From UHGV virus genome UHGV-0369576: a DNA stretch of 26,400 bases; one strand, 5' to 3'. Positions 1,053-22,631 of the stretch are shown here, piece after piece (position 1 is the first letter of the stretch; each line of letters starts with the position of its first letter). This DNA is from a virus. Both the position numbers and the translations under genes were made by a program. Under the pieces are notes generated by a model, which saw nothing but the letters and a program-made list of their open reading frames with translations, was not told the DNA's origin and ran no database searches.

Positions 1053-4000
1053 CCCGACGCGATGACTGCATAATTGACACAACCCTGCTGTCGATCAGAT
1101 CCACCAGTCCCCTGGCTGAGCGCGCATCTATCTCGCCATTGCTCCCTTGATTCTGAATGCTGATGTGATACACGGGAGAATAAACAAATCCACCGCCACC
1201 ATTCACATTTCCAATGGCCCTGACCCCAAGAGAGCCGTCCGCTGCCCGTGTCAGTGGCATGATTGCTTCGGGCCCGGCCTCGCCCATCAACCCGGCACCT
1301 TTCGCAAAAGCAAAATACGTCGGTGTATCCACAATAGTGTTACTGTAAGCACTCAGATTTGCCGATGTGTAAACACCACCTTTTGCGTTTGCCACTGCCC
1401 CCGAAATCCATCCGCCGACCGTACCAAGCCACCCTCCGGCACCGGAGAGTGATTTCAGTCCGTTAACAATGGCTGCATTCATCAGAATTTTTGAAACTTC
1501 CCGGAGAACTGAACTCCCCCAGTTCCTCCAGTCCACAACATTCCCGGCCAGTGCATCGGAAATATTTGATACCAGCCCGTCCATCGTGGAAACGACAGCA
1601 TCTGCCGCCTGTGAAGCATAATCGGTGGCACTGTCTGCCCAGTTGGTCAGTCCCTCCTGGAGTCCGGCATTCCAGTTATTACGTAAAGCATCGGCCTTTG
1701 CATAATAATCCTGCTGATCGCTGAGACGCTCTTCCAGATATTTTTTATTCAGTTCTTTCTCCTGTTTCCACAGAGCTTCTTCAATTTCTCCGGCCTGATA
1801 CTGTCTCAGCAGCTCGTTATTTTTCTGCTCAAACGCCTGCCGGATACTCCACATTTCCTGGAGTCGTTCACGCATCCGTGAGCCTTCACCATATCCCAGC
1901 AACTGCGCTTCGTCAGATGCCCGGGCACTGGCATTACTGTCCGCCAGACTGCTCTCATACGCAGCAAGCTGCTCACGAATCTTTTTCTGGTCGATGAGTG
2001 CTGCATTCTGCAAAAGCGTTTTTTTCTGCGCTTCTGACAGGGTTGATAATTCGCCCTGACTGACCTGATATTTCATCTTAGCCAGTTCAGTATTCTGCCC
2101 TGCCAGTGCTATTTGTTCTTTTTGCTGTTTAATCAGCCGTTTATAAATATCTTCTGTTTTTTCCGCTTCGGTCTTTTTATGCGCTTTGGGTTTATTTGCC
2201 TGGTTATTTCGCCAGGCATCCAGTGAGTTATTGATATAATTCTGTCTGGCTGTCTGATACGCCTCTCCCACAAAGCCGAGATCATCCGCAGCATAACCCA
2301 GGCGGGCACGCTCACGGGCTTCCCCCTTCAGGCGGGACAGAGCCAGTTCGCGCTCACTGTTATTCAGTGCGGTCTGCTGTTTATCATCCAGGGTTGCCTG
2401 TGGTAGCCGTAACGGTACATTCACCAGCCCCTGTCGCTGCTGAAGTAATTCATTACCGAGCCCGAGAAGGCGATTAAACTCGGTATGCTGCCCATTCATG
2501 ATCAACAGGGACTGATACGCTTTGTTTTGTTCCGCGGCCTGTTGACGGATCAACGCCACCCGTCGCTCCTCCAGCCCGGCAAGCACATCCTGAATGGATT
2601 GCGCTTTGCCCTGCATTTGTGTGAGACGGGACTGTTCAACTGCCAGTTGATTTGTTGCTTCTGCAAGCCCTTCTGTGACAGTTTTTACCGACGTCATGTG
2701 GTTAATCATAAAACCGTTATCGGTTGTCCAGCCCGGGTTTGCCAGCACATACTGATAGCCAGCAATTTTTTCCTGTAAGGATTTAATCTTACTTTTCTGC
2801 TCGTCAATTAACCTGTTTTGCTCATCAAGTGCCTGCCGCGTCTTTTCCTCATTATCTGACGCTTCAGGAAGCGACATTGCCGACGTTTTCTGGCGAATTT
2901 CGTCGATTGTTGCGGCATACTGGCGTGCAGATTCTCTGGCCTTCTCCTGATTCTGATACATCGTGTACCAGGCCGTCGCCCCCAGCATGACGAGTCCCGG
3001 CACACCACCAACCAACCCCAGCGCACCACTTAACAGACGACTCCCCACTGACGTGACAGTATTCAGCGTTGTCTGTGCCGCTGTTCTGGCCGCAATATTA
3101 CGGGTAAGTGACGCCTGGGCAGCTGTCAGCTTCGCTTCTGCTGCGGCCTGCCTTTCGGTACCGCGAGCAGCAACAACCGCCTGTTGCGCACGATAAACCG
3201 CCGCACGCGCCCTGGCGGTTGCTATCTGTGTCCCCCGAAGTTGCGCTTCAGCAAGAGCCACTTCGTTTCTGGCTGCAGTAATTAATCCGGCAGTTGCAGA
3301 TCCAGCAGACGACGCCATATTGCCAAAATATCGGGCTACCCCGACGGCAACCAGTGCGCCAGCTGCAGCAGCCACGGTATCCATATTGTCTGCAACACCA
3401 TTCAACACCCCGGTGAGTGTCTTTGTCACTCCGCTTGCCTCGTTCGCACCACCAACCCAGGCCATAAAGGCGTTTTCAACTTTGGTTGCAGAGGATGAAA
3501 CAGTATCAGGCATTGCTGCATATTCATCACGCAACGCCCCAAGCTGACTAATCAGTGCAGGAACAACCTTATCGGCGGTCAGTTTTCCGTTATCCGCCAT
3601 GGCCTTCAGATCCTTACGGGCAACACCCATTCCCGCAGCCAGCGCACGAATAACACGATCGCCGTTCTCATTCACAGAGTTAAATTCTTCACCGCGCAGC
3701 ACTCCCTGCGCCAGTGCCTGACTGAACTGCGTGATCACCGAACTGGCTTCTGCTGTACTGGCACCGGATAATTTCAGGCCCGTGGAGATCGCCTCGGTGA
3801 CTTTCAGTACCTCCTCAGAACTGTAGCCATACTCCCGCATGGAAGCTGCAGAGCGGGCAAAAAGGCTGGCGTTATCAGAAAACGCCGTTCCCGTTCTCTG
3901 GCTGATTGCCATTAATTCACGTTGTGATACCTGAAAATCATCACTGGACTGTGAAGCCTGCTTCAGACGGGCATTTACTGAATTCCACTCATCGGCGAGA

Positions 4001-4263
4001 GAAATAAGATGACCGGTAGCAAAAGCTCCGGCAAATGCCCCCGCCATATTCAGTGCCGAAGATTTAGCTGTATTTATCTGATCCGTCACTTCTGCCAGTG
4101 CACGCCGCATTTCACGGGATGCAGCAGCGGACTGCCGGCCTCCGTTCTGCATGGTACGGTAGTAATCCTGCCCCATACGCGAAGCCCGGGAGATCTCTGA
4201 CTGGAATGACCGGGAATTTGCCGAGATTTTAATAATCAGTTCACGTAATGTCGCCACACTCAT
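1030..4263 (-). CDS. Tail tape measure protein (lambda H-like)
   Basis: 1077-aa ORF, Ala/Gln-rich coiled-coil-like middle, Gly-rich C-terminus, positioned after G/GT and before M; ATG at 4263 preceded by GGAGA. Confidence 0.9.
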   Translation of the reverse strand: MSVATLRELIIKISANSRSFQSEISRASRMGQDYYRTMQNGGRQSAAASREMRRALAEVTDQINTAKSSALNMAGAFAGAFATGHLISLADEWNSVNARLKQASQSSDDFQVSQRELMAISQRTGTAFSDNASLFARSAASMREYGYSSEEVLKVTEAISTGLKLSGASTAEASSVITQFSQALAQGVLRGEEFNSVNENGDRVIRALAAGMGVARKDLKAMADNGKLTADKVVPALISQLGALRDEYAAMPDTVSSSATKVENAFMAWVGGANEASGVTKTLTGVLNGVADNMDTVAAAAGALVAVGVARYFGNMASSAGSATAGLITAARNEVALAEAQLRGTQIATARARAAVYRAQQAVVAARGTERQAAAEAKLTAAQASLTRNIAARTAAQTTLNTVTSVGSRLLSGALGLVGGVPGLVMLGATAWYTMYQNQEKARESARQYAATIDEIRQKTSAMSLPEASDNEEKTRQALDEQNRLIDEQKSKIKSLQEKIAGYQYVLANPGWTTDNGFMINHMTSVKTVTEGLAEATNQLAVEQSRLTQMQGKAQSIQDVLAGLEERRVALIRQQAAEQNKAYQSLLIMNGQHTEFNRLLGLGNELLQQRQGLVNVPLRLPQATLDDKQQTALNNSERELALSRLKGEARERARLGYAADDLGFVGEAYQTARQNYINNSLDAWRNNQANKPKAHKKTEAEKTEDIYKRLIKQQKEQIALAGQNTELAKMKYQVSQGELSTLSEAQKKTLLQNAALIDQKKIREQLAAYESSLADSNASARASDEAQLLGYGEGSRMRERLQEMWSIRQAFEQKNNELLRQYQAGEIEEALWKQEKELNKKYLEERLSDQQDYYAKADALRNNWNAGLQEGLTNWADSATDYASQAADAVVSTMDGLVSNISDALAGNVVDWRNWGSSVLREVSKILMNAAIVNGLKSLSGAGGWLGTVGGWISGAVANAKGGVYTSANLSAYSNTIVDTPTYFAFAKGAGLMGEAGPEAIMPLTRAADGSLGVRAIGNVNGGGGFVYSPVYHISIQNQGSNGEIDARSARGLVDLIDSRVVSIMQSSRRDGGLYSA

Positions 4264-4271
4264 TCTCCGGA

Positions 4272-4294
4272 CGAAAAAAACCGCCGAAGCGGTT
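4272..4294 (-). terminator. Intrinsic-terminator-like hairpin between GT and tape measure genes
   Basis: aaccgc-cgaa-gcggtt stem-loop followed on the minus strand by a 7-T run, immediately upstream of the tape-measure SD. Confidence 0.4.
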
Positions 4295-4302
4295 ATGTTG
4301 AC

Positions 4303-4976
4303 TCACTGAGACACTATTAAAAGCGCGTTTTCCAGTCCGGCAAATGGATCTGAGACGCCTTCTGTCTGCTCTTGTTCCCACTGAAGAAGCGCATCATTCA
4401 GTGGGACTTTGACACCCTGCGCACCGTAAACCGCAGAAACTATCTGGGCAGCCCGGATATCAGCCCGCTCGTCACCCAGCGGGCTGAACCTGTCAAATTC
4501 TGCCCACATCATGATTTCTGATGCGGACATTTCCCGGCGTAACTCTGACAATGTGCGCCCCATCCTGAGCGCCAGCATCATCAGAAAACGCATCCCCGGA
4601 AGCGCTACTTTTTTTTAACCTCGCCGGCATCACTGATCAGTTCCAGAGACTGCCGAAGAAGCCGCGCATGCACCGGGCCATACACGGCAATCACCTGTTC
4701 ACGATCATCCTCTGAAAATACAGGTTGCAGTCCGGTATCACACAGAACATCAATGAACAGTTCAACATCTGCCTCCAGATTTCGGCGGGCGCGCTCCGCA
4801 ACGGATAACGGTGTCTCATCATCTTTTGCTTTAACGATCTCCTGCCAGCGCAACCAGGCTTCTGCAGAAGGTTCCCGTAATACAACCGTTGCCCCTTCCC
4901 ATTCAGGCACATCAACAGTTTTATGGCGAAACCCCGACATCGTTGCCAGTGCCAGATTGCGGATATTTTTAGTCAT
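4303..4976 (-). CDS. Tail assembly chaperone G-T fusion made by programmed -1 frameshift
   Basis: ORF 4303..4593 is open upstream through the slippery site in the -1 frame relative to G (reads KVALPGMRFLMM...); classic G/GT arrangement. Confidence 0.7.
4605..4976 (-). CDS. Tail assembly chaperone G
   Basis: Position between major tail and tape measure genes; ends GEVKKK-stop on a run of 8 A; start at second ATG (4976) which has a GAGGA SD. Confidence 0.8.
   Translation of the reverse strand: MTKNIRNLALATMSGFRHKTVDVPEWEGATVVLREPSAEAWLRWQEIVKAKDDETPLSVAERARRNLEADVELFIDVLCDTGLQPVFSEDDREQVIAVYGPVHARLLRQSLELISDAGEVKKK
4608..4614 (-). promoter_or_regulatory. Slippery heptamer A_AAA_AAG for the G/GT -1 frameshift
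   Basis: Minus-strand GTT AAA AAA AAG TAG at the end of G; the -1 frame continues without a stop into T. Confidence 0.7.
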
Positions 4977-4990
4977 CACATCTATCCTCA

Positions 4991-5695
4991 TTAACTGACG
5001 GTAACAGTGCAGGAAGTGGAGGTCACCTTGTTAACAGGGCTTGCTGAATCAGAAATCTCGCAGGTATACGCACCGGCATCACCTGATGCTGCTGATGCCT
5101 TACTGAATGTTGCCGCCGTCTGTCCGGAAACAGGAGAACTACCTTTCTTCCAGACATAAGAATAAGGCGGCACACCACCGGCAGCCTCAACCACCATTTC
5201 GAGTTTCGCTCCGGCAGAAACCTGCAGCGTGCTGTTTAAATCGACCTTCACTTTCAGCGGCTCTGTCGTCAGCACAGGTTTACCTTTCAGGCGCAGGGAA
5301 AACGTTGCAGCCACAACACCATTAGTTCCTGCAGACCAGGTATGCTGACGCACCTCTGCCATAAAGGTAAATCCGTTGCCTGACGGAAAAATAACTTTAA
5401 AGCCATACGTGGTGTCATTGTCATAGGCACTGCGCAACGCGTTCTGGGCAGCATTGAGGTAAAAGTTGCCTGACATGGAAATCTCTGACGCGGCACCAAG
5501 GCCGTTAATATTTTCCTGCTCAACAGAACACAGCGTGGTGACATCAATATCCTGCTTTTGTCCTGCGGTAAACTGCACCTCTTTGATTGTACAGCTCAGG
5601 CCAAGATAGCTGGCAGAATCCAGGGTTTCTGCTGTTACCGGTGCAGACGAAATCATAATTTTCGTCAGTTGCGAACGCTCAAAATTAGAGGACAT
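4991..5695 (-). CDS. Major tail (tube) protein with C-terminal Ig-like domain
   Basis: Position upstream of G/GT; C-terminal ~80 aa resemble a Big_2-type Ig domain (PPYSYVWKKG...AYTCEISD); ATG at 5695 with AGGAGA SD, downstream of a terminator hairpin. Confidence 0.85.
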   Translation of the reverse strand: MSSNFERSQLTKIMISSAPVTAETLDSASYLGLSCTIKEVQFTAGQKQDIDVTTLCSVEQENINGLGAASEISMSGNFYLNAAQNALRSAYDNDTTYGFKVIFPSGNGFTFMAEVRQHTWSAGTNGVVAATFSLRLKGKPVLTTEPLKVKVDLNSTLQVSAGAKLEMVVEAAGGVPPYSYVWKKGSSPVSGQTAATFSKASAASGDAGAYTCEISDSASPVNKVTSTSCTVTVS

Positions 5696-5710
5696 ACTCG
5701 TCTCCTGAAA

Positions 5711-5736
5711 ATAAAAAACCCGCCAGCGGCGGGTGG
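5711..5736 (-). terminator. Hairpin plus T-run upstream of the major tail gene
   Basis: cccgcc-agc-ggcggg stem followed on the minus strand by ttttttatttt. Confidence 0.45.
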
Positions 5737-5754
5737 GTAAAATCATTAACGACC

Positions 5755-6099
5755 TCAGGCTATTACCTGAAATTCAAGCGTGGCTCTGCTCAGACGGGAA
5801 TCAGGATCATAACCCTGAGTTTTAGAAATAACGGAAGGTGCAAGTTGCCTTACCGCATCAAGCGCCTGCTCACGGATATCATCTGCGTCATCAGGTACTG
5901 TTGCCCAGACATCGATCTGCACGGTAATTCTGGATTCAGCCTGACCATCAAGCACATCAGACGCAGTGTCAGACACCACAGAAAATACCAGCCATGGCGG
6001 AGATACCGCAGGCTTTCCCTCCGTCAGCGGGACCACATAAGGATAAACCTGTCCTCCGGCCAGTTGAGACAGCAGGGAATACAGTGTGGTCTCTCTCAT
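5755..6099 (-). CDS. Tail terminator / tail completion protein (DUF3168-like position)
   Basis: 114-aa ORF immediately upstream of the major tail gene; start overlaps the preceding stop. Confidence 0.55.
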   Translation of the reverse strand: MRETTLYSLLSQLAGGQVYPYVVPLTEGKPAVSPPWLVFSVVSDTASDVLDGQAESRITVQIDVWATVPDDADDIREQALDAVRQLAPSVISKTQGYDPDSRLSRATLEFQVIA

Positions 6100-13919: not shown

Positions 13920-14405
13920 ATGCCAGAACTCGTTGATCCAACAGACTCATTAATTAGTTTTCAATACGCCTTTTCTAATGGTCTGATTAAGCCTTCACCA
14001 TGCATAGTTCACCCAAATATGAAGGTGCTTTTGGATGATGCAGAGGGTACGCCACGGTTTACTTATGCATTCTTTGAAGGAGAAAATGTTAAAGGTGTTG
14101 CTATATATGTCCCTGCAGAGTTTGTTGAAGGTAAACCATGCTTTGGCGTTGGCTATGCAGTAGCCGATGAATATAAAGCGCAAGGCATCGGTACTCAACT
14201 TCTCATCGCCAGCATTGAAGAAATGCAATACGGATTTAGAAATTCCTTCAATGAATTCTATGTAGAGGCTATTGTCGGGGTTGGTAATCAAGCCTCCAAC
14301 AAATTAGCTGCAAAAGTTTTATCTGATACTCCTGAGCCAGGGACAGATTCTTACTCAGGAAAACCTATCAATCAGTACATGAAACTTTTCAAAACCACAA
14401 AATAA
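13920..14405 (+). CDS. GNAT-fold N-acetyltransferase-like moron
   Basis: Motif-A-like VGYAVADEYKAQGIGTQLL (Q-x-x-G-x-G) and motif-B-like FYVEAIVGVGNQASNKLAAKV; opposite strand to all neighbours; AT-rich; own AGGA SD and downstream hairpin. Confidence 0.55.
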   Translation: MPELVDPTDSLISFQYAFSNGLIKPSPCIVHPNMKVLLDDAEGTPRFTYAFFEGENVKGVAIYVPAEFVEGKPCFGVGYAVADEYKAQGIGTQLLIASIEEMQYGFRNSFNEFYVEAIVGVGNQASNKLAAKVLSDTPEPGTDSYSGKPINQYMKLFKTTK

Positions 14406-16463: not shown

Positions 16464-16538
<75 letters not shown>

Positions 16539-16541
16539 ATA

Positions 16542-16617
<76 letters not shown>

Positions 16618-16619
16618 AC

Positions 16620-16696
16620 TGGACCGCCACCGGGGACTCGAACCTCGCACACTCAACTTAAAGGGTTGACGCTCTTTCCTGATGAGCTAGTGGCGG
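16620..16696 (-). tRNA. tRNA-like gene with non-canonical features (anticodon region CCUUUAA, possibly UUU/Lys)
   Basis: Perfect 7-bp acceptor stem starting C1-G72, D and T arms present, encoded CCA, but C at position 33 and an A-C mismatch in the T stem. Confidence 0.45.
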
Positions 16697-16697
16697 C

Positions 16698-16773
16698 TGG
16701 TGGCCCTTGCTGGATTTGAACCAGCGACCTGGCGATTATGAGTCGCTCGCTCTCACCACTGAGCTAAAGGGCC
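16698..16773 (-). tRNA. tRNA with CAU anticodon (Ile2/Met type, ileX/ileZ-like)
   Basis: Anticodon loop CUCAUAA; overall similarity to E. coli ileX from memory; encoded CCA. Confidence 0.7.
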
Positions 16774-19651: not shown

Positions 19652-20044
19652 CTACTGCCCTGTTTTAACGAAGTTTTTAAAGGAAACAACTGCCTGATAG
19701 GGGTTTGGTTGACAGCCAAACATATTATCGCAAAAAGGCTTGATGAAAATTCTTGAGGATCCATCTTCATTTGGCATTTTACTCACTTGATAAGCGAGGA
19801 ATGGACTATTTGGAGAGGGATTATAAGTGGAAATTAGCGTGTCTGTCGCCGTTTGAATTTTCCATGAGGAATTATTAGCCAACCAGAATTGCGCTCGTTT
19901 CCAATAAAAGTCACATTGCTTTTCATCATTACATGTTAGTGGCTTCATTGCTTCTGCTTTCAACGCTGGATCGATCTTTGCTGCACACCCTCCCAACATT
20001 ACTGTTGCAATCATTACACCTGCGACTAAAACAAGTTTCTTCAT
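19652..20044 (-). CDS. Lipoprotein (130 aa), AT-rich moron
   Basis: Signal peptide MKKLVLVAGVMIATVMLGGC with lipobox LGGC; six further Cys; low-GC gene bracketed by terminator hairpins. Confidence 0.65.
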   Translation of the reverse strand: MKKLVLVAGVMIATVMLGGCAAKIDPALKAEAMKPLTCNDEKQCDFYWKRAQFWLANNSSWKIQTATDTLISTYNPSPNSPFLAYQVSKMPNEDGSSRIFIKPFCDNMFGCQPNPYQAVVSFKNFVKTGQ

Positions 20045-20187: not shown

Positions 20188-20343
20188 TTACTCCTCAGGT
20201 TCGTAAGCTGTGAAGACAGCGACCTCCGTCTGGCCGGTTCGGATTCGTACCTCGCAGAGGTCTTTCCTCGTTACCAGTGCCGTCACAATGACGGTTAAAC
20301 AGATGACGATCAGGGCGATTAACATCGCCTTTTGCTGCTTCAT
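20188..20343 (-). CDS. hokD: Hok-family type I toxin (HokD/RelF-like)
   Basis: 51 aa, MKQQKAMLIALIVICLTVIVTALVTRKDLCEVRIRTGQTEVAVFTAYEPEE; single TM helix and conserved Hok C-terminal region. Confidence 0.8.
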   Translation of the reverse strand: MKQQKAMLIALIVICLTVIVTALVTRKDLCEVRIRTGQTEVAVFTAYEPEE

Positions 20344-20579
20344 AGCCTGCTTCTCCTTGCCTTTCGGCACGTAAGAGGCTAACCTAGATTTGCCGTTCAT
20401 AGATTGAGCCTCAGATTAATGTTAAGCGTCTTGCAGGACGCGTAATGTTAACTGGGGCTTTTCTCTATCTGCCTTTGGTGTTCATGCCTGAGACAGATAG
20501 CCTCAAGCACCCGCAGCCATTCTACTTAACTCCCGTTACCTCGCCAATATAAAATCAATCAGAAAGGTGATCCATAAAA

Positions 20580-21266
20580 TCACTCCTTCTCTTCTTTTCC
20601 GTAGTGGAGTTGGCCAATTTTGATAAGAGGGCGTCCCTGAGATTTGCGGTGTAGATTGGTATCGCGCAGAGAATACACACAGCCACAATATTCCTGCTGA
20701 TAGAATTTTTCGCGCTTGCTGATTTCAATCATACGGGACGAGCCGCCCTGCTTGCGCCAGTTATAATCCCAGTACACCATACCCGGATAATGCGCAACAG
20801 CTCGCCGCCCACACTCGTTAACCTGCTGCATATTTTTCCAGCGTGAAATGCCCAGTGAACTGCTGATCACACTGAAACCATTTTCAGCAGCGTACAACGC
20901 TGTCCGCTCAAAACGCATGTCAAAACACATGGTACAACGGATCCCCCTCTCAGGCTCCCATTCCATTCCTTTGGCACGTTCAAACCAGTTGTCGGTGTCG
21001 TAATCAGCATCGATAAACGGCACGCCGTGTTGTTCAGCAAAGCGAATATTTTCATCCTTACGAATTAAATACTCTTTCTGAGGATGAATGTTCGGGTTGT
21101 AGAAAAAGATGGTGTAGTCGATTCCCGAGGCCTGAAGCGCCTCCATCACTTCACCGGAACATGGAGCACAGCAAGAGTGCAGTAGTAGTTTGTTTGCCCC
21201 GTTTGGGAGCTCCAATTTAGGCCGTTTGAAATCAGCAATAGTCATAAATATTTTTATTGGGGTCAT
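20580..21266 (-). CDS. Cys-rich DUF208/QueH-like protein (putative epoxyqueuosine-reductase family)
   Basis: N-terminal [14 protein letters not shown] motif plus further Cys clusters (CTMCFD, EYCGCVY); family assignment from memory of the motif only. Confidence 0.45.
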
Positions 21267-21419
21267 GAAAATAGCACAGAGTGTAGCATCAGAGCAGGTC
21301 TATCGGGAATATATGTCTAAATCTGGTAATATCTGGTTTTGACGCAAAGCGGACAACCACGCTGGCTCTACCCTGCGCCATGAAAATGTCAATTCACATC
21401 TGAACTAATGCTCTTTAAT

Positions 21420-21845
21420 CTAGTAACGTCTAAAATACCTAACATTTCCTTGATAAAATGCCAGTACACGCTGCATAGCTTCGCTCTTCCGGCACTCGCG
21501 ACAGATTATATTCAGGCGCCTGTCGTAGCGGCGTATTTCGCCGTCTGGTAACGACCAGATAAGGTCCGGATCAACCACTGCAGGTTTCTTCACCTTTGCC
21601 CTTGAGAGTTTTTTGCGAGCATTTTGCCAGTCCTTACGCGCCTGTTCAGACGGGAATAACCCGTAACCAGAGTTGTATACATCGCCACTGGCAACCAGCT
21701 CTCTGGCGAGAACACTCATCAGATATCTTGTCGCACCTGTCCTGGCTTCCAGTTGCCGCAACGTCTCGCGACCGCTCAGACGTACAAGTTCAACAACCTG
21801 CCCTTTAATTTTTTCCCGCTCTTCTTGTGTAAATACTTTTGCCAT
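21420..21845 (-). CDS. Hypothetical protein (141 aa), possible HTH
   Basis: ATG at 21845 with GGAGG SD, coupled to the upstream gene; basic C-terminus. Confidence 0.45.
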   Translation of the reverse strand: MAKVFTQEEREKIKGQVVELVRLSGRETLRQLEARTGATRYLMSVLARELVASGDVYNSGYGLFPSEQARKDWQNARKKLSRAKVKKPAVVDPDLIWSLPDGEIRRYDRRLNIICRECRKSEAMQRVLAFYQGNVRYFRRY

Positions 21846-21860
21846 AAGCGCCTCCGGCAA

Positions 21861-22631
21861 TCACTTTTCCGATACAACACGGCGGGAAGAATCAGTAATC
21901 TGTCGAACAATATCCCGGTGCTTGTTCAGCTCCCGCAGCGCGGCGCAGACTCGCTCCCACTTCTGAACATCACTTTTCGCCCTGCGCAGCGCCAGGTTTG
22001 CCCTGCGAAGGGACGGAAAAATCAGCTCATCTGCTTGCGTTTCGGTAAACGATGGCAACGGCTGCACAATGTCCGCCACAGTTTCTGTTTTAATTTCTTC
22101 CTGTGTTGCGGCTTCCCGGACTGGTAACGCAGCACCTGCTGGCTGAGGAAAGGCCTTACCATCACTTTCCGTTACCAGCGCGGCTTTCGGCTCTGCTGGT
22201 AAATTATCGCCCGGCATGCAGTAACGAAATTTACCGTTCTGATTAACGCGTGCCAGCCGCCCCGTTGCGGTTACCACCGCCAGCGTGGAAGCAACCTTGC
22301 GAGTACTGACACCGAACTTACCCGCCAGTTCCTCACACGTTTTAGCCCCATCCTGACCGATAAACTCAATCATCATGTCTGCGGTAACTTTTTGTTCGAC
22401 CTCCCCGGTCAGCATATCCTGTGCTTCAGATTTTACTGGCCGCTCTTCGGTTACCCGGGATTCACCTTCGCCAGCCAGAAACCAGGTGTGACCAGTTTTA
22501 TCAACGACGCCTTTTCTTTTGAGTTCCCACAGCTCGTTGACAGCCTCTTCACGACTGATTCCAAGGCGAGCTGCCACCACATGTGAAGAGGCTTTTTTCA
22601 GTGCTTTCAGTGCGTCAGATACGGTTTCCAT
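21861..22631 (-). CDS. Hypothetical protein (256 aa) with two winged-helix-like repeats
   Basis: Internal repeat AARLGISREEAVNELWELKRKGVV versus LAGKFGVSTRKVASTLAVVTATGRLARV; sits after the replication genes. Confidence 0.45.
   Translation of the reverse strand: METVSDALKALKKASSHVVAARLGISREEAVNELWELKRKGVVDKTGHTWFLAGEGESRVTEERPVKSEAQDMLTGEVEQKVTADMMIEFIGQDGAKTCEELAGKFGVSTRKVASTLAVVTATGRLARVNQNGKFRYCMPGDNLPAEPKAALVTESDGKAFPQPAGAALPVREAATQEEIKTETVADIVQPLPSFTETQADELIFPSLRRANLALRRAKSDVQKWERVCAALRELNKHRDIVRQITDSSRRVVSEK

Follow-up and report, generated by a model that had tools for sequence, protein, structure and literature searches.

A predicted full-length QueH encoded by lambdoid prophages of Escherichia coli: a probable cobalamin-independent route of queuosine maturation

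Introduction

The DNA analysed in this study, referred to as the window, is a stretch of 26,400 nucleotides from the virus genome UHGV-0369576, and it is 99.4% identical to the prophage of E. coli strain G12 and of about 90 other genomes. It carries on the minus strand a gene (20580-21266) which a preliminary description had assigned, on the basis of a cysteine motif, to the DUF208 family of epoxyqueuosine reductases (QueH). The locus raises the question of why a lambdoid phage should carry an enzyme for the last step of queuosine synthesis in a host which already possesses an enzyme for the same step.

Queuosine (Q) is carried by the tRNAs with a GUN anticodon (Asn, Asp, His and Tyr) and tunes the decoding of the Asn, Asp, His and Tyr codons. 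De novo synthesis of cobalamin is impossible for E. coli and the vitamin has to be scavenged. The pathway which forms the substrate, epoxyqueuosine (oQ), is established in E. coli K-12 (tgt, queA; PMC5372724, PMC9508795). The host enzyme QueG (yjeS in E. coli) belongs to a family unrelated to QueH and requires cobalamin and two [4Fe-4S] clusters (PMC4646009), whereas QueH is cobalamin-independent (PMC5615194). As far as the work of Frey et al. (1988) is related in PMC4646009, the conversion of oQ to Q in Salmonella and E. coli requires a cobamide, and oQ builds up in E. coli cells which lack B12. In S. aureus, QueG and QueH coexist and their expression patterns were attributed by the authors to cofactor availability (PMC13443448). 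A search of the literature other than the primary QueH papers, in which the names QueH, DUF208, COG1636 and epoxyqueuosine reductase were paired with phage and prophage, returned no discussion of a QueH in E. coli prophages.

Results and Discussion

Identification of the gene product

The open reading frame at 20580-21266 is uninterrupted over 228 codons in the ORF list of the window. The product is probably of 221 aa and begins at ATG 21245, since the upstream ATG 21266 is unconserved (it is ATT in the ST70 allele), whereas ATG 21245 is invariant, along with the codons after it, in the six prophage alleles. The coding sequence is accordingly placed at 20580-21245 on the minus strand (221 aa and the stop codon) from the ORF, the Pfam and RefSeq matches and the conservation of the start codon. 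A good Shine-Dalgarno sequence is absent before either ATG (start region 21243-21266) and the leader is AU-rich. The 221-aa product is 100% identical to RefSeq WP_000150294.1, which is named 'epoxyqueuosine reductase QueH'.

The Pfam profile PF02677 (QueH) matched the prophage protein with 221.5 bits (curated cutoff 23.5 bits) and E=1.1e-65 over profile positions 1-174 of 175, and a match of this significance over nearly the entire profile excludes chance. No NCBIfam model matched the protein. In PHROGs it falls in phrog_3217 (E=1.9e-138), which is labelled 'unknown function' and to which the QueH annotation can be transferred with confidence. Sequence matches in the PDB were the QueH chains of Thermotoga maritima (7lc5, 9dco and 9d86) with E values of about 1e-21 (7.8e-22 for the PDB QueH match) over residues 27-203, and the identity to this solved enzyme was 31-35%.

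The individual residues were compared in an alignment of 79 representatives (clusters at 50% identity) drawn from 4774 library matches, to which 7lc5 was added. All seven family-conserved cysteines, C32, C33, C36, C111, C114, C194 and C196, are present in the prophage protein. Each of them is kept in at least 90% of the aligned representatives except C194, which is kept in 55 of 68 (81%). Hence, the pattern CCxP[C/D], CxxC and CxC, which forms the set for a [4Fe-4S] cluster and an adjacent iron, is complete, the metal-ligand assignments being based on the alignment and on the titles of the PDB entries. The other strongly conserved positions P35, N57, N59, I60, P62, E65, Y66, R69, W94 and E106 are kept as well, and so are G108, R110, R118, A126, K144 and G195. 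C9 and D13 of the T. maritima enzyme, which were mutated by the depositors in 9d86 and 9dco, align with C32 and C36. Cysteine is the family majority at the position of D13 (68 of 73). The 14-residue motif on which the preliminary description had relied occupies residues 27-40 of the ORF product and is followed by the cysteine pairs C111/C114 and C194/C196, as had been noted; it had also been taken for the start of the protein, but it opens the conserved domain instead.

The AlphaFold2 model of the prophage protein had a pLDDT of 76.8 and a pTM of 0.79. In a Foldseek search of the PDB with this model, the top five matches were all T. maritima QueH (E about 1e-11, target-normalised TM 0.84), including the queuosine complex 9deu. 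TtuA and LarE, which have adenine-nucleotide alpha-hydrolase folds, were the next matches and were weaker by about seven orders of magnitude. The DUF208/QueH assignment of the preliminary description is thus borne out by the full-length profile match, the PDB match, the fold and the retention of every conserved metal-site cysteine.

As judged from the alignment and the predicted structure, the prophage gene encodes an intact full-length QueH, which very likely has the canonical molecular function. It resembles T. maritima QueH (PF02677/IPR003828, formerly DUF208; PDB 7lc5) in domain, cysteine pattern and predicted fold, but it is carried by a temperate phage and not by the chromosome, and it has a cysteine in place of D13. 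The gene is a cargo gene of a known family and not a novel type of system. Its identity had already been given by the RefSeq automatic annotation, and its setting as lambdoid prophage cargo is unusual but widespread.

Genomic setting and occurrence of queH

The G12 prophage has a length of about 41 kb and is integrated beside a tRNA-Ser gene, near mtfA and zinT. The minus-strand genes follow the order of a cro-like gene, a YdaT-like gene, an O-like HTH gene, a DnaC-like ATPase, DUF1627, DUF977, queH, hok/sok, a lipoprotein ORF, DUF968, RusA, Q and four tRNAs, after which come the holin, lysozyme and Rz genes, a GNAT gene on the opposite strand, the terminase, an HK97-type head and a lambda-type tail. 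The placement of the gene in the nin region of a prophage, as proposed earlier, is therefore correct, because queH lies between DUF977 on one side and hok/sok, DUF968, RusA and Q on the other. The DUF977 gene (21420-21860, minus strand; PF06163, E=9e-28) is the last gene of the replication module. The preceding DUF1627 gene (21861-22631, minus strand) is intact in the window and is annotated as frameshifted in the G12 prophage. The GNAT-family acetyltransferase gene (13920-14405, plus strand), which separates the lysis cassette from the HNH/terminase genes, looks like another item of cargo.

Among complete E. coli genomes, queH was found in 995 of 5426 (about 18%), and 985 of these 995 carriers have a copy which covers at least 80% of the gene. 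Of its 1017 places 1014 are chromosomal, and in every context inspected the gene lay in a prophage. The E. coli copies listed bear the RefSeq name 'epoxyqueuosine reductase QueH'. IMG/VR gave 189 matching stretches, and in the best 80 of them the encoded protein has 100% identity to that of the window. In these 80 loci the order of DUF977, queH and then hok and/or DUF968 is nearly constant. The sole constant partner is DUF977, which precedes queH in 79 of the 80 loci and in all the E. coli contexts inspected.

Divergent alleles (92-98% nucleotide identity) were found in other backbones, including that of the isolated phage HannyBb, each directly after DUF977. In ST70 the gene belongs to a Rac-like prophage adjoining trkG. 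In NCTC10537 and strain 7/2 it belongs to Qin-like defective prophages, and the one in NCTC10537 contains IS3 and is without late genes. The gene is intact in these defective Qin- and Rac-like prophages. Its presence is variable, as it occurs in 18% of E. coli genomes and almost none of the sequenced lambdoid isolates has it. In 50,697 phage records the only close copy was that of phage HannyBb, where it is annotated as 'hypothetical protein'. Between Q and the holin gene (2465-5226 of the examined stretch), the deposited annotation of HannyBb also lists about 18 very short CDS (90-170 nt) named 'hypothetical protein'. These look like an over-annotated non-coding stretch, because ARAGORN finds no tRNAs there.

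Origin, expression and selection

The closest proteins outside E. coli prophages, with 80-90% amino acid identity and equal length, are the chromosomal QueH of Erwinia, Gibbsiella, Providencia, Proteus, Photorhabdus, Rahnella, Ewingella and others. Six of these homologue contexts were inspected and all were non-phage. In Erwinia the gene sits between purL and glrK, in Providencia it adjoins tmcA and purC, and in Photorhabdus it adjoins benE and toxin-complex genes; the remaining ones were chromosomal contigs, in one of which the gene adjoins dcm/vsr. The chromosomal genes thus stand among housekeeping genes (purL, tmcA, dcm/vsr), whereas the prophage gene stands between DUF977 and hok/sok. Since its nearest relatives are chromosomal genes in non-phage contexts, the phage queH is, on this comparison of sequences, a captured Enterobacterales housekeeping gene.

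A putative extended -10 element, TGCTACACT, was recognized by comparative alignment at 21280-21288 on the minus strand, 34 nt upstream of ATG 21245. The element is intact in four of the six prophage alleles and has a one-base change in ST70 (TGCTACACA) and in strain 7/2 (TGCCACACT). In six chromosomal queH genes, an identical or similar element (TGCTACACT, TGCTAAAAT, TGCTACAAT, TACACT, TATACT and TATAAT) precedes the ATG by 37-44 nt. As a -10-like element is found at about the same distance in the phage and chromosomal copies, queH probably came into the phage with its own short-leader promoter, from which it may also be expressed in lysogens. A consensus scan called no sigma-70 promoter or terminator on the queH strand beside the gene and left the -10-like element uncalled. 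For this reason the own promoter is something that we infer, and for the same reason queH may be transcribed only within the early-right operon during induction. The Rfam search upstream of queH gave no riboswitch or other RNA family, and only the downstream sok reached the gathering score.

Of the marks of a phage moron, an independently expressed gene of lysogenic conversion, queH shows a conserved -10-like element and a variable presence, whereas the scan called neither promoter nor terminator and the GC content, 0.46-0.50, is like that of the flanks. Nei-Gojobori analysis of five prophage alleles gave dS values up to 0.45 with dN/dS of 0.046-0.091. By these estimates the gene has long been resident in the phage gene pool under strong purifying selection, and it is therefore no decaying passenger; it is also intact where late genes have been lost. 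The opposite reading, that queH is a neutral passenger or a decaying remnant with no current function, can draw on its full redundancy with the host queG gene in every genome (see below) and on the scarcity of expression signals, as neither a promoter nor a strong ribosome-binding site could be called. However, it is already contradicted by the signal of selection (dN/dS 0.05-0.09 at dS up to 0.45), and nearly all carriers keep the larger part of the gene with the conserved residues all intact. We regard it as very improbable.

Proposed role of the prophage QueH

A megablast search with K-12 queG (b4166) found queG in all 5426 complete E. coli genomes. Consequently, in every carrier the prophage queH duplicates a reaction for which the host has its own enzyme, and it coexists with QueG rather than replacing it, in difference from the known QueH. 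Both enzymes are predicted to perform the same reaction, from oQ34-tRNA to Q34-tRNA, in the same cell. On the strength of the sequence comparisons, the prophage gene is a well-conserved backup to the B12-dependent host enzyme, for which we infer a benefit as follows.

Ancestors of this lambdoid phage would have taken queH from a chromosome elsewhere in the Enterobacterales, probably along with its short-leader promoter, and the gene would since have travelled as cargo in the slot which has the replication genes on one side and hok/sok and Q on the other. In the host, Tgt and QueA would make epoxyqueuosine at position 34 of tRNA-Asn, tRNA-Asp, tRNA-His and tRNA-Tyr. The prophage QueH, an iron-sulfur enzyme independent of cobalamin, would then remove the epoxide oxygen by a two-electron reduction to give queuosine, which is the reaction of host QueG without vitamin B12. 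The selected benefit would most likely lie in sustaining the maturation of queuosine under a shortage of cobalamin or after loss of cobalamin uptake, both in the lysogen and during phage growth.

The conversion of oQ to Q on host tRNAs without B12 is thus the most likely function. The finishing of queuosine without B12 is the most economical reading because QueG needs cobalamin, QueH does not and E. coli cannot make cobalamin. Taken as a whole, the explanation that a functional QueH was captured from an Enterobacterales chromosome, is carried as prophage cargo and keeps queuosine maturation going under cobalamin scarcity is considered probable. We know of no difference in decoding between oQ and Q, and hence the size of any benefit is uncertain. 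A broader proposal can be put forward only tentatively, and we consider it less likely than not to hold in full: lambdoid prophages may bring a cobalamin-independent queuosine route to about one fifth of E. coli, where it may be kept as B12 in the gut is contested and BtuB is a target of phages and colicins.

If this broader proposal is true, a lysogen could lose or repress its B12 uptake and still mature Q-tRNA, and QueH would provide the first demonstrated case of lysogenic conversion by a tRNA-hypermodification enzyme. A prophage gene which removes B12 dependence would be a simple and natural example of a phage altering the tRNA modification state of its host. Moreover, a lysogen and its cured strain, with and without B12, would provide isogenic material for asking what oQ and Q do differently.

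Phage tRNAs, codon usage and lytic growth

The preliminary description had linked QueH to the tRNA cluster of the phage and had suggested phage manipulation of tRNA modification or of a 7-deazaguanine pathway. The cluster (16464-16773, minus strand; from ARAGORN, RefSeq and codon counts) consists of Gly-UCC, Thr-UGU, Lys-UUU and a CAU tRNA (Ile2), the last being Ile in RefSeq and Met by ARAGORN. The four tRNAs read GGA, ACA, AAA and ATA. Of these codons, ATA, ACA and GGA are about twofold commoner in the prophage genes than in the host gene sample, and the cluster is therefore explained without queuosine. None of the four has a GUN anticodon, so that the proposed link with the cluster falls away. 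HannyBb, the sequenced isolate with queH, had no tRNAs by ARAGORN in the region examined. An enrichment of the prophage in queuosine-read codons was also considered and is ruled out, as its NAU/NAC usage equals that of the host: for Asn, Asp, His and Tyr, the NAU fraction of the codons is 0.58 in the prophage as against 0.56 in the host sample, and queuosine-read codons number 14.5 and 13.5 per 100, respectively.

These values bear on the possibility that QueH serves the phage in lytic growth only, where its expression from the early-right operon would top up the queuosine of host tRNAs for an efficient or accurate translation of the late proteins of the phage. The gene is co-oriented with that operon, no terminator lies between it and the replication genes, and the prophage invests in translation otherwise, through four tRNAs matching enriched codons. 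However, a phage whose use of queuosine-read codons equals that of its host does not fit this possibility, nor do the intact copies in defective prophages without late genes, and the promoter-like element common to the chromosomal homologues suggests independent expression. A role confined to lytic growth is thus considered unlikely.

Relation to 7-deazaguanine DNA modification

The phage 7-deazaguanine clusters (DpdA with FolE, QueD, QueE and QueC) resemble the prophage queH in being phage-borne genes of the queuosine/7-deazaguanine pathway. The prophage differs in having neither DpdA nor genes of preQ0 synthesis, and QueH acts after the base has been inserted into tRNA. It is known that phages hijack enzymes of the preQ0/queuosine pathway for the modification of DNA (PMC6884629), and an action of QueH on phage DNA within such a pathway would have this precedent. 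On the other hand, the RefSeq annotation of the whole G12 prophage of about 41 kb contains no DpdA or TGT-like transglycosylase and no FolE, QueC, QueD or QueE, and the solved QueH structure 9deu binds a queuosine nucleoside. To our knowledge, no DNA base of the epoxyqueuosine type exists. Hutinet et al. (2019) state that QueA, QueG and QueH had no homologue among the DNA-modifying viruses which they surveyed (PMC6884629). An action on phage DNA is regarded as extremely improbable, and the suggestion of a 7-deazaguanine pathway is not sustained by the gene content. From the idea of phage manipulation of tRNA modification, what stands is a redundant, B12-independent last step of queuosine synthesis, and its links with the tRNA cluster and with DNA modification are not supported.

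Neighbouring cargo and the defence question

Directly downstream of queH lies a hok/sok type I toxin-antitoxin locus (20188-20560, minus strand) with a Hok/Gef domain (PF01848, E=3e-23), a sok RNA (RF01794 at 20338-20512, 110 bits) and the RefSeq name hokD. It is neighbouring cargo and lies outside the function of QueH. A promoter-like site (20547-20519, minus strand) is seen just beyond the queH stop codon, at the complete hok/sok locus (mok/hok ORF). Farther on, in a patch of low GC (0.39-0.40), is a 130-aa ORF (19652-20044, minus strand) which has a lipoprotein signal with an LGGC lipobox. This ORF gave no match in Pfam or PADLOC and was found in 8 of the 80 IMG/VR loci, i.e., in a minority of the queH prophages.

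In the Qin-like prophage of strain 7/2 (4153-5792 of the examined stretch), queH is followed by a KwaB-like Kiwa gene with a 204-aa partner, and then by an IS fragment and by relBE and hokD. Since a Kiwa-like gene, relBE and hokD come after queH in this strain, the slot behind DUF977 and queH is a hotspot of cargo and defence genes.

Such a slot could suggest that QueH takes part in conflict, either because the Q/oQ status of the GUN-anticodon tRNAs alters their susceptibility to anticodon nucleases of the colicin E5 type or because QueH belongs to a defence island. The tRNAs cleaved by colicin E5 are exactly those which carry queuosine, and the slot holds hok/sok in the window and the Kiwa-like gene and relBE in strain 7/2. 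Against this, no PADLOC model matches QueH, DUF977 or the neighbouring lipoprotein ORF, and queH has no constant partner gene except DUF977. The protein shares 80-90% identity with chromosomal enzymes of the housekeeping kind and retains all residues of the catalytic site, and we know of nothing which sets oQ apart from Q in nuclease sensitivity. A part in conflict is therefore judged to be quite improbable, and the B12-independent maturation of queuosine remains the preferred reading.

The same slot is affected by a deletion in the Rac prophage of E. coli K-12, where ydaW is joined directly to the rzpR pseudogene and the slot of queH is removed (4753-5645 of the examined stretch). In the Rac-like prophage of ST70, the segment which is deleted in K-12 Rac holds DUF977, queH, nin-type genes, tRNAs and lysis genes.
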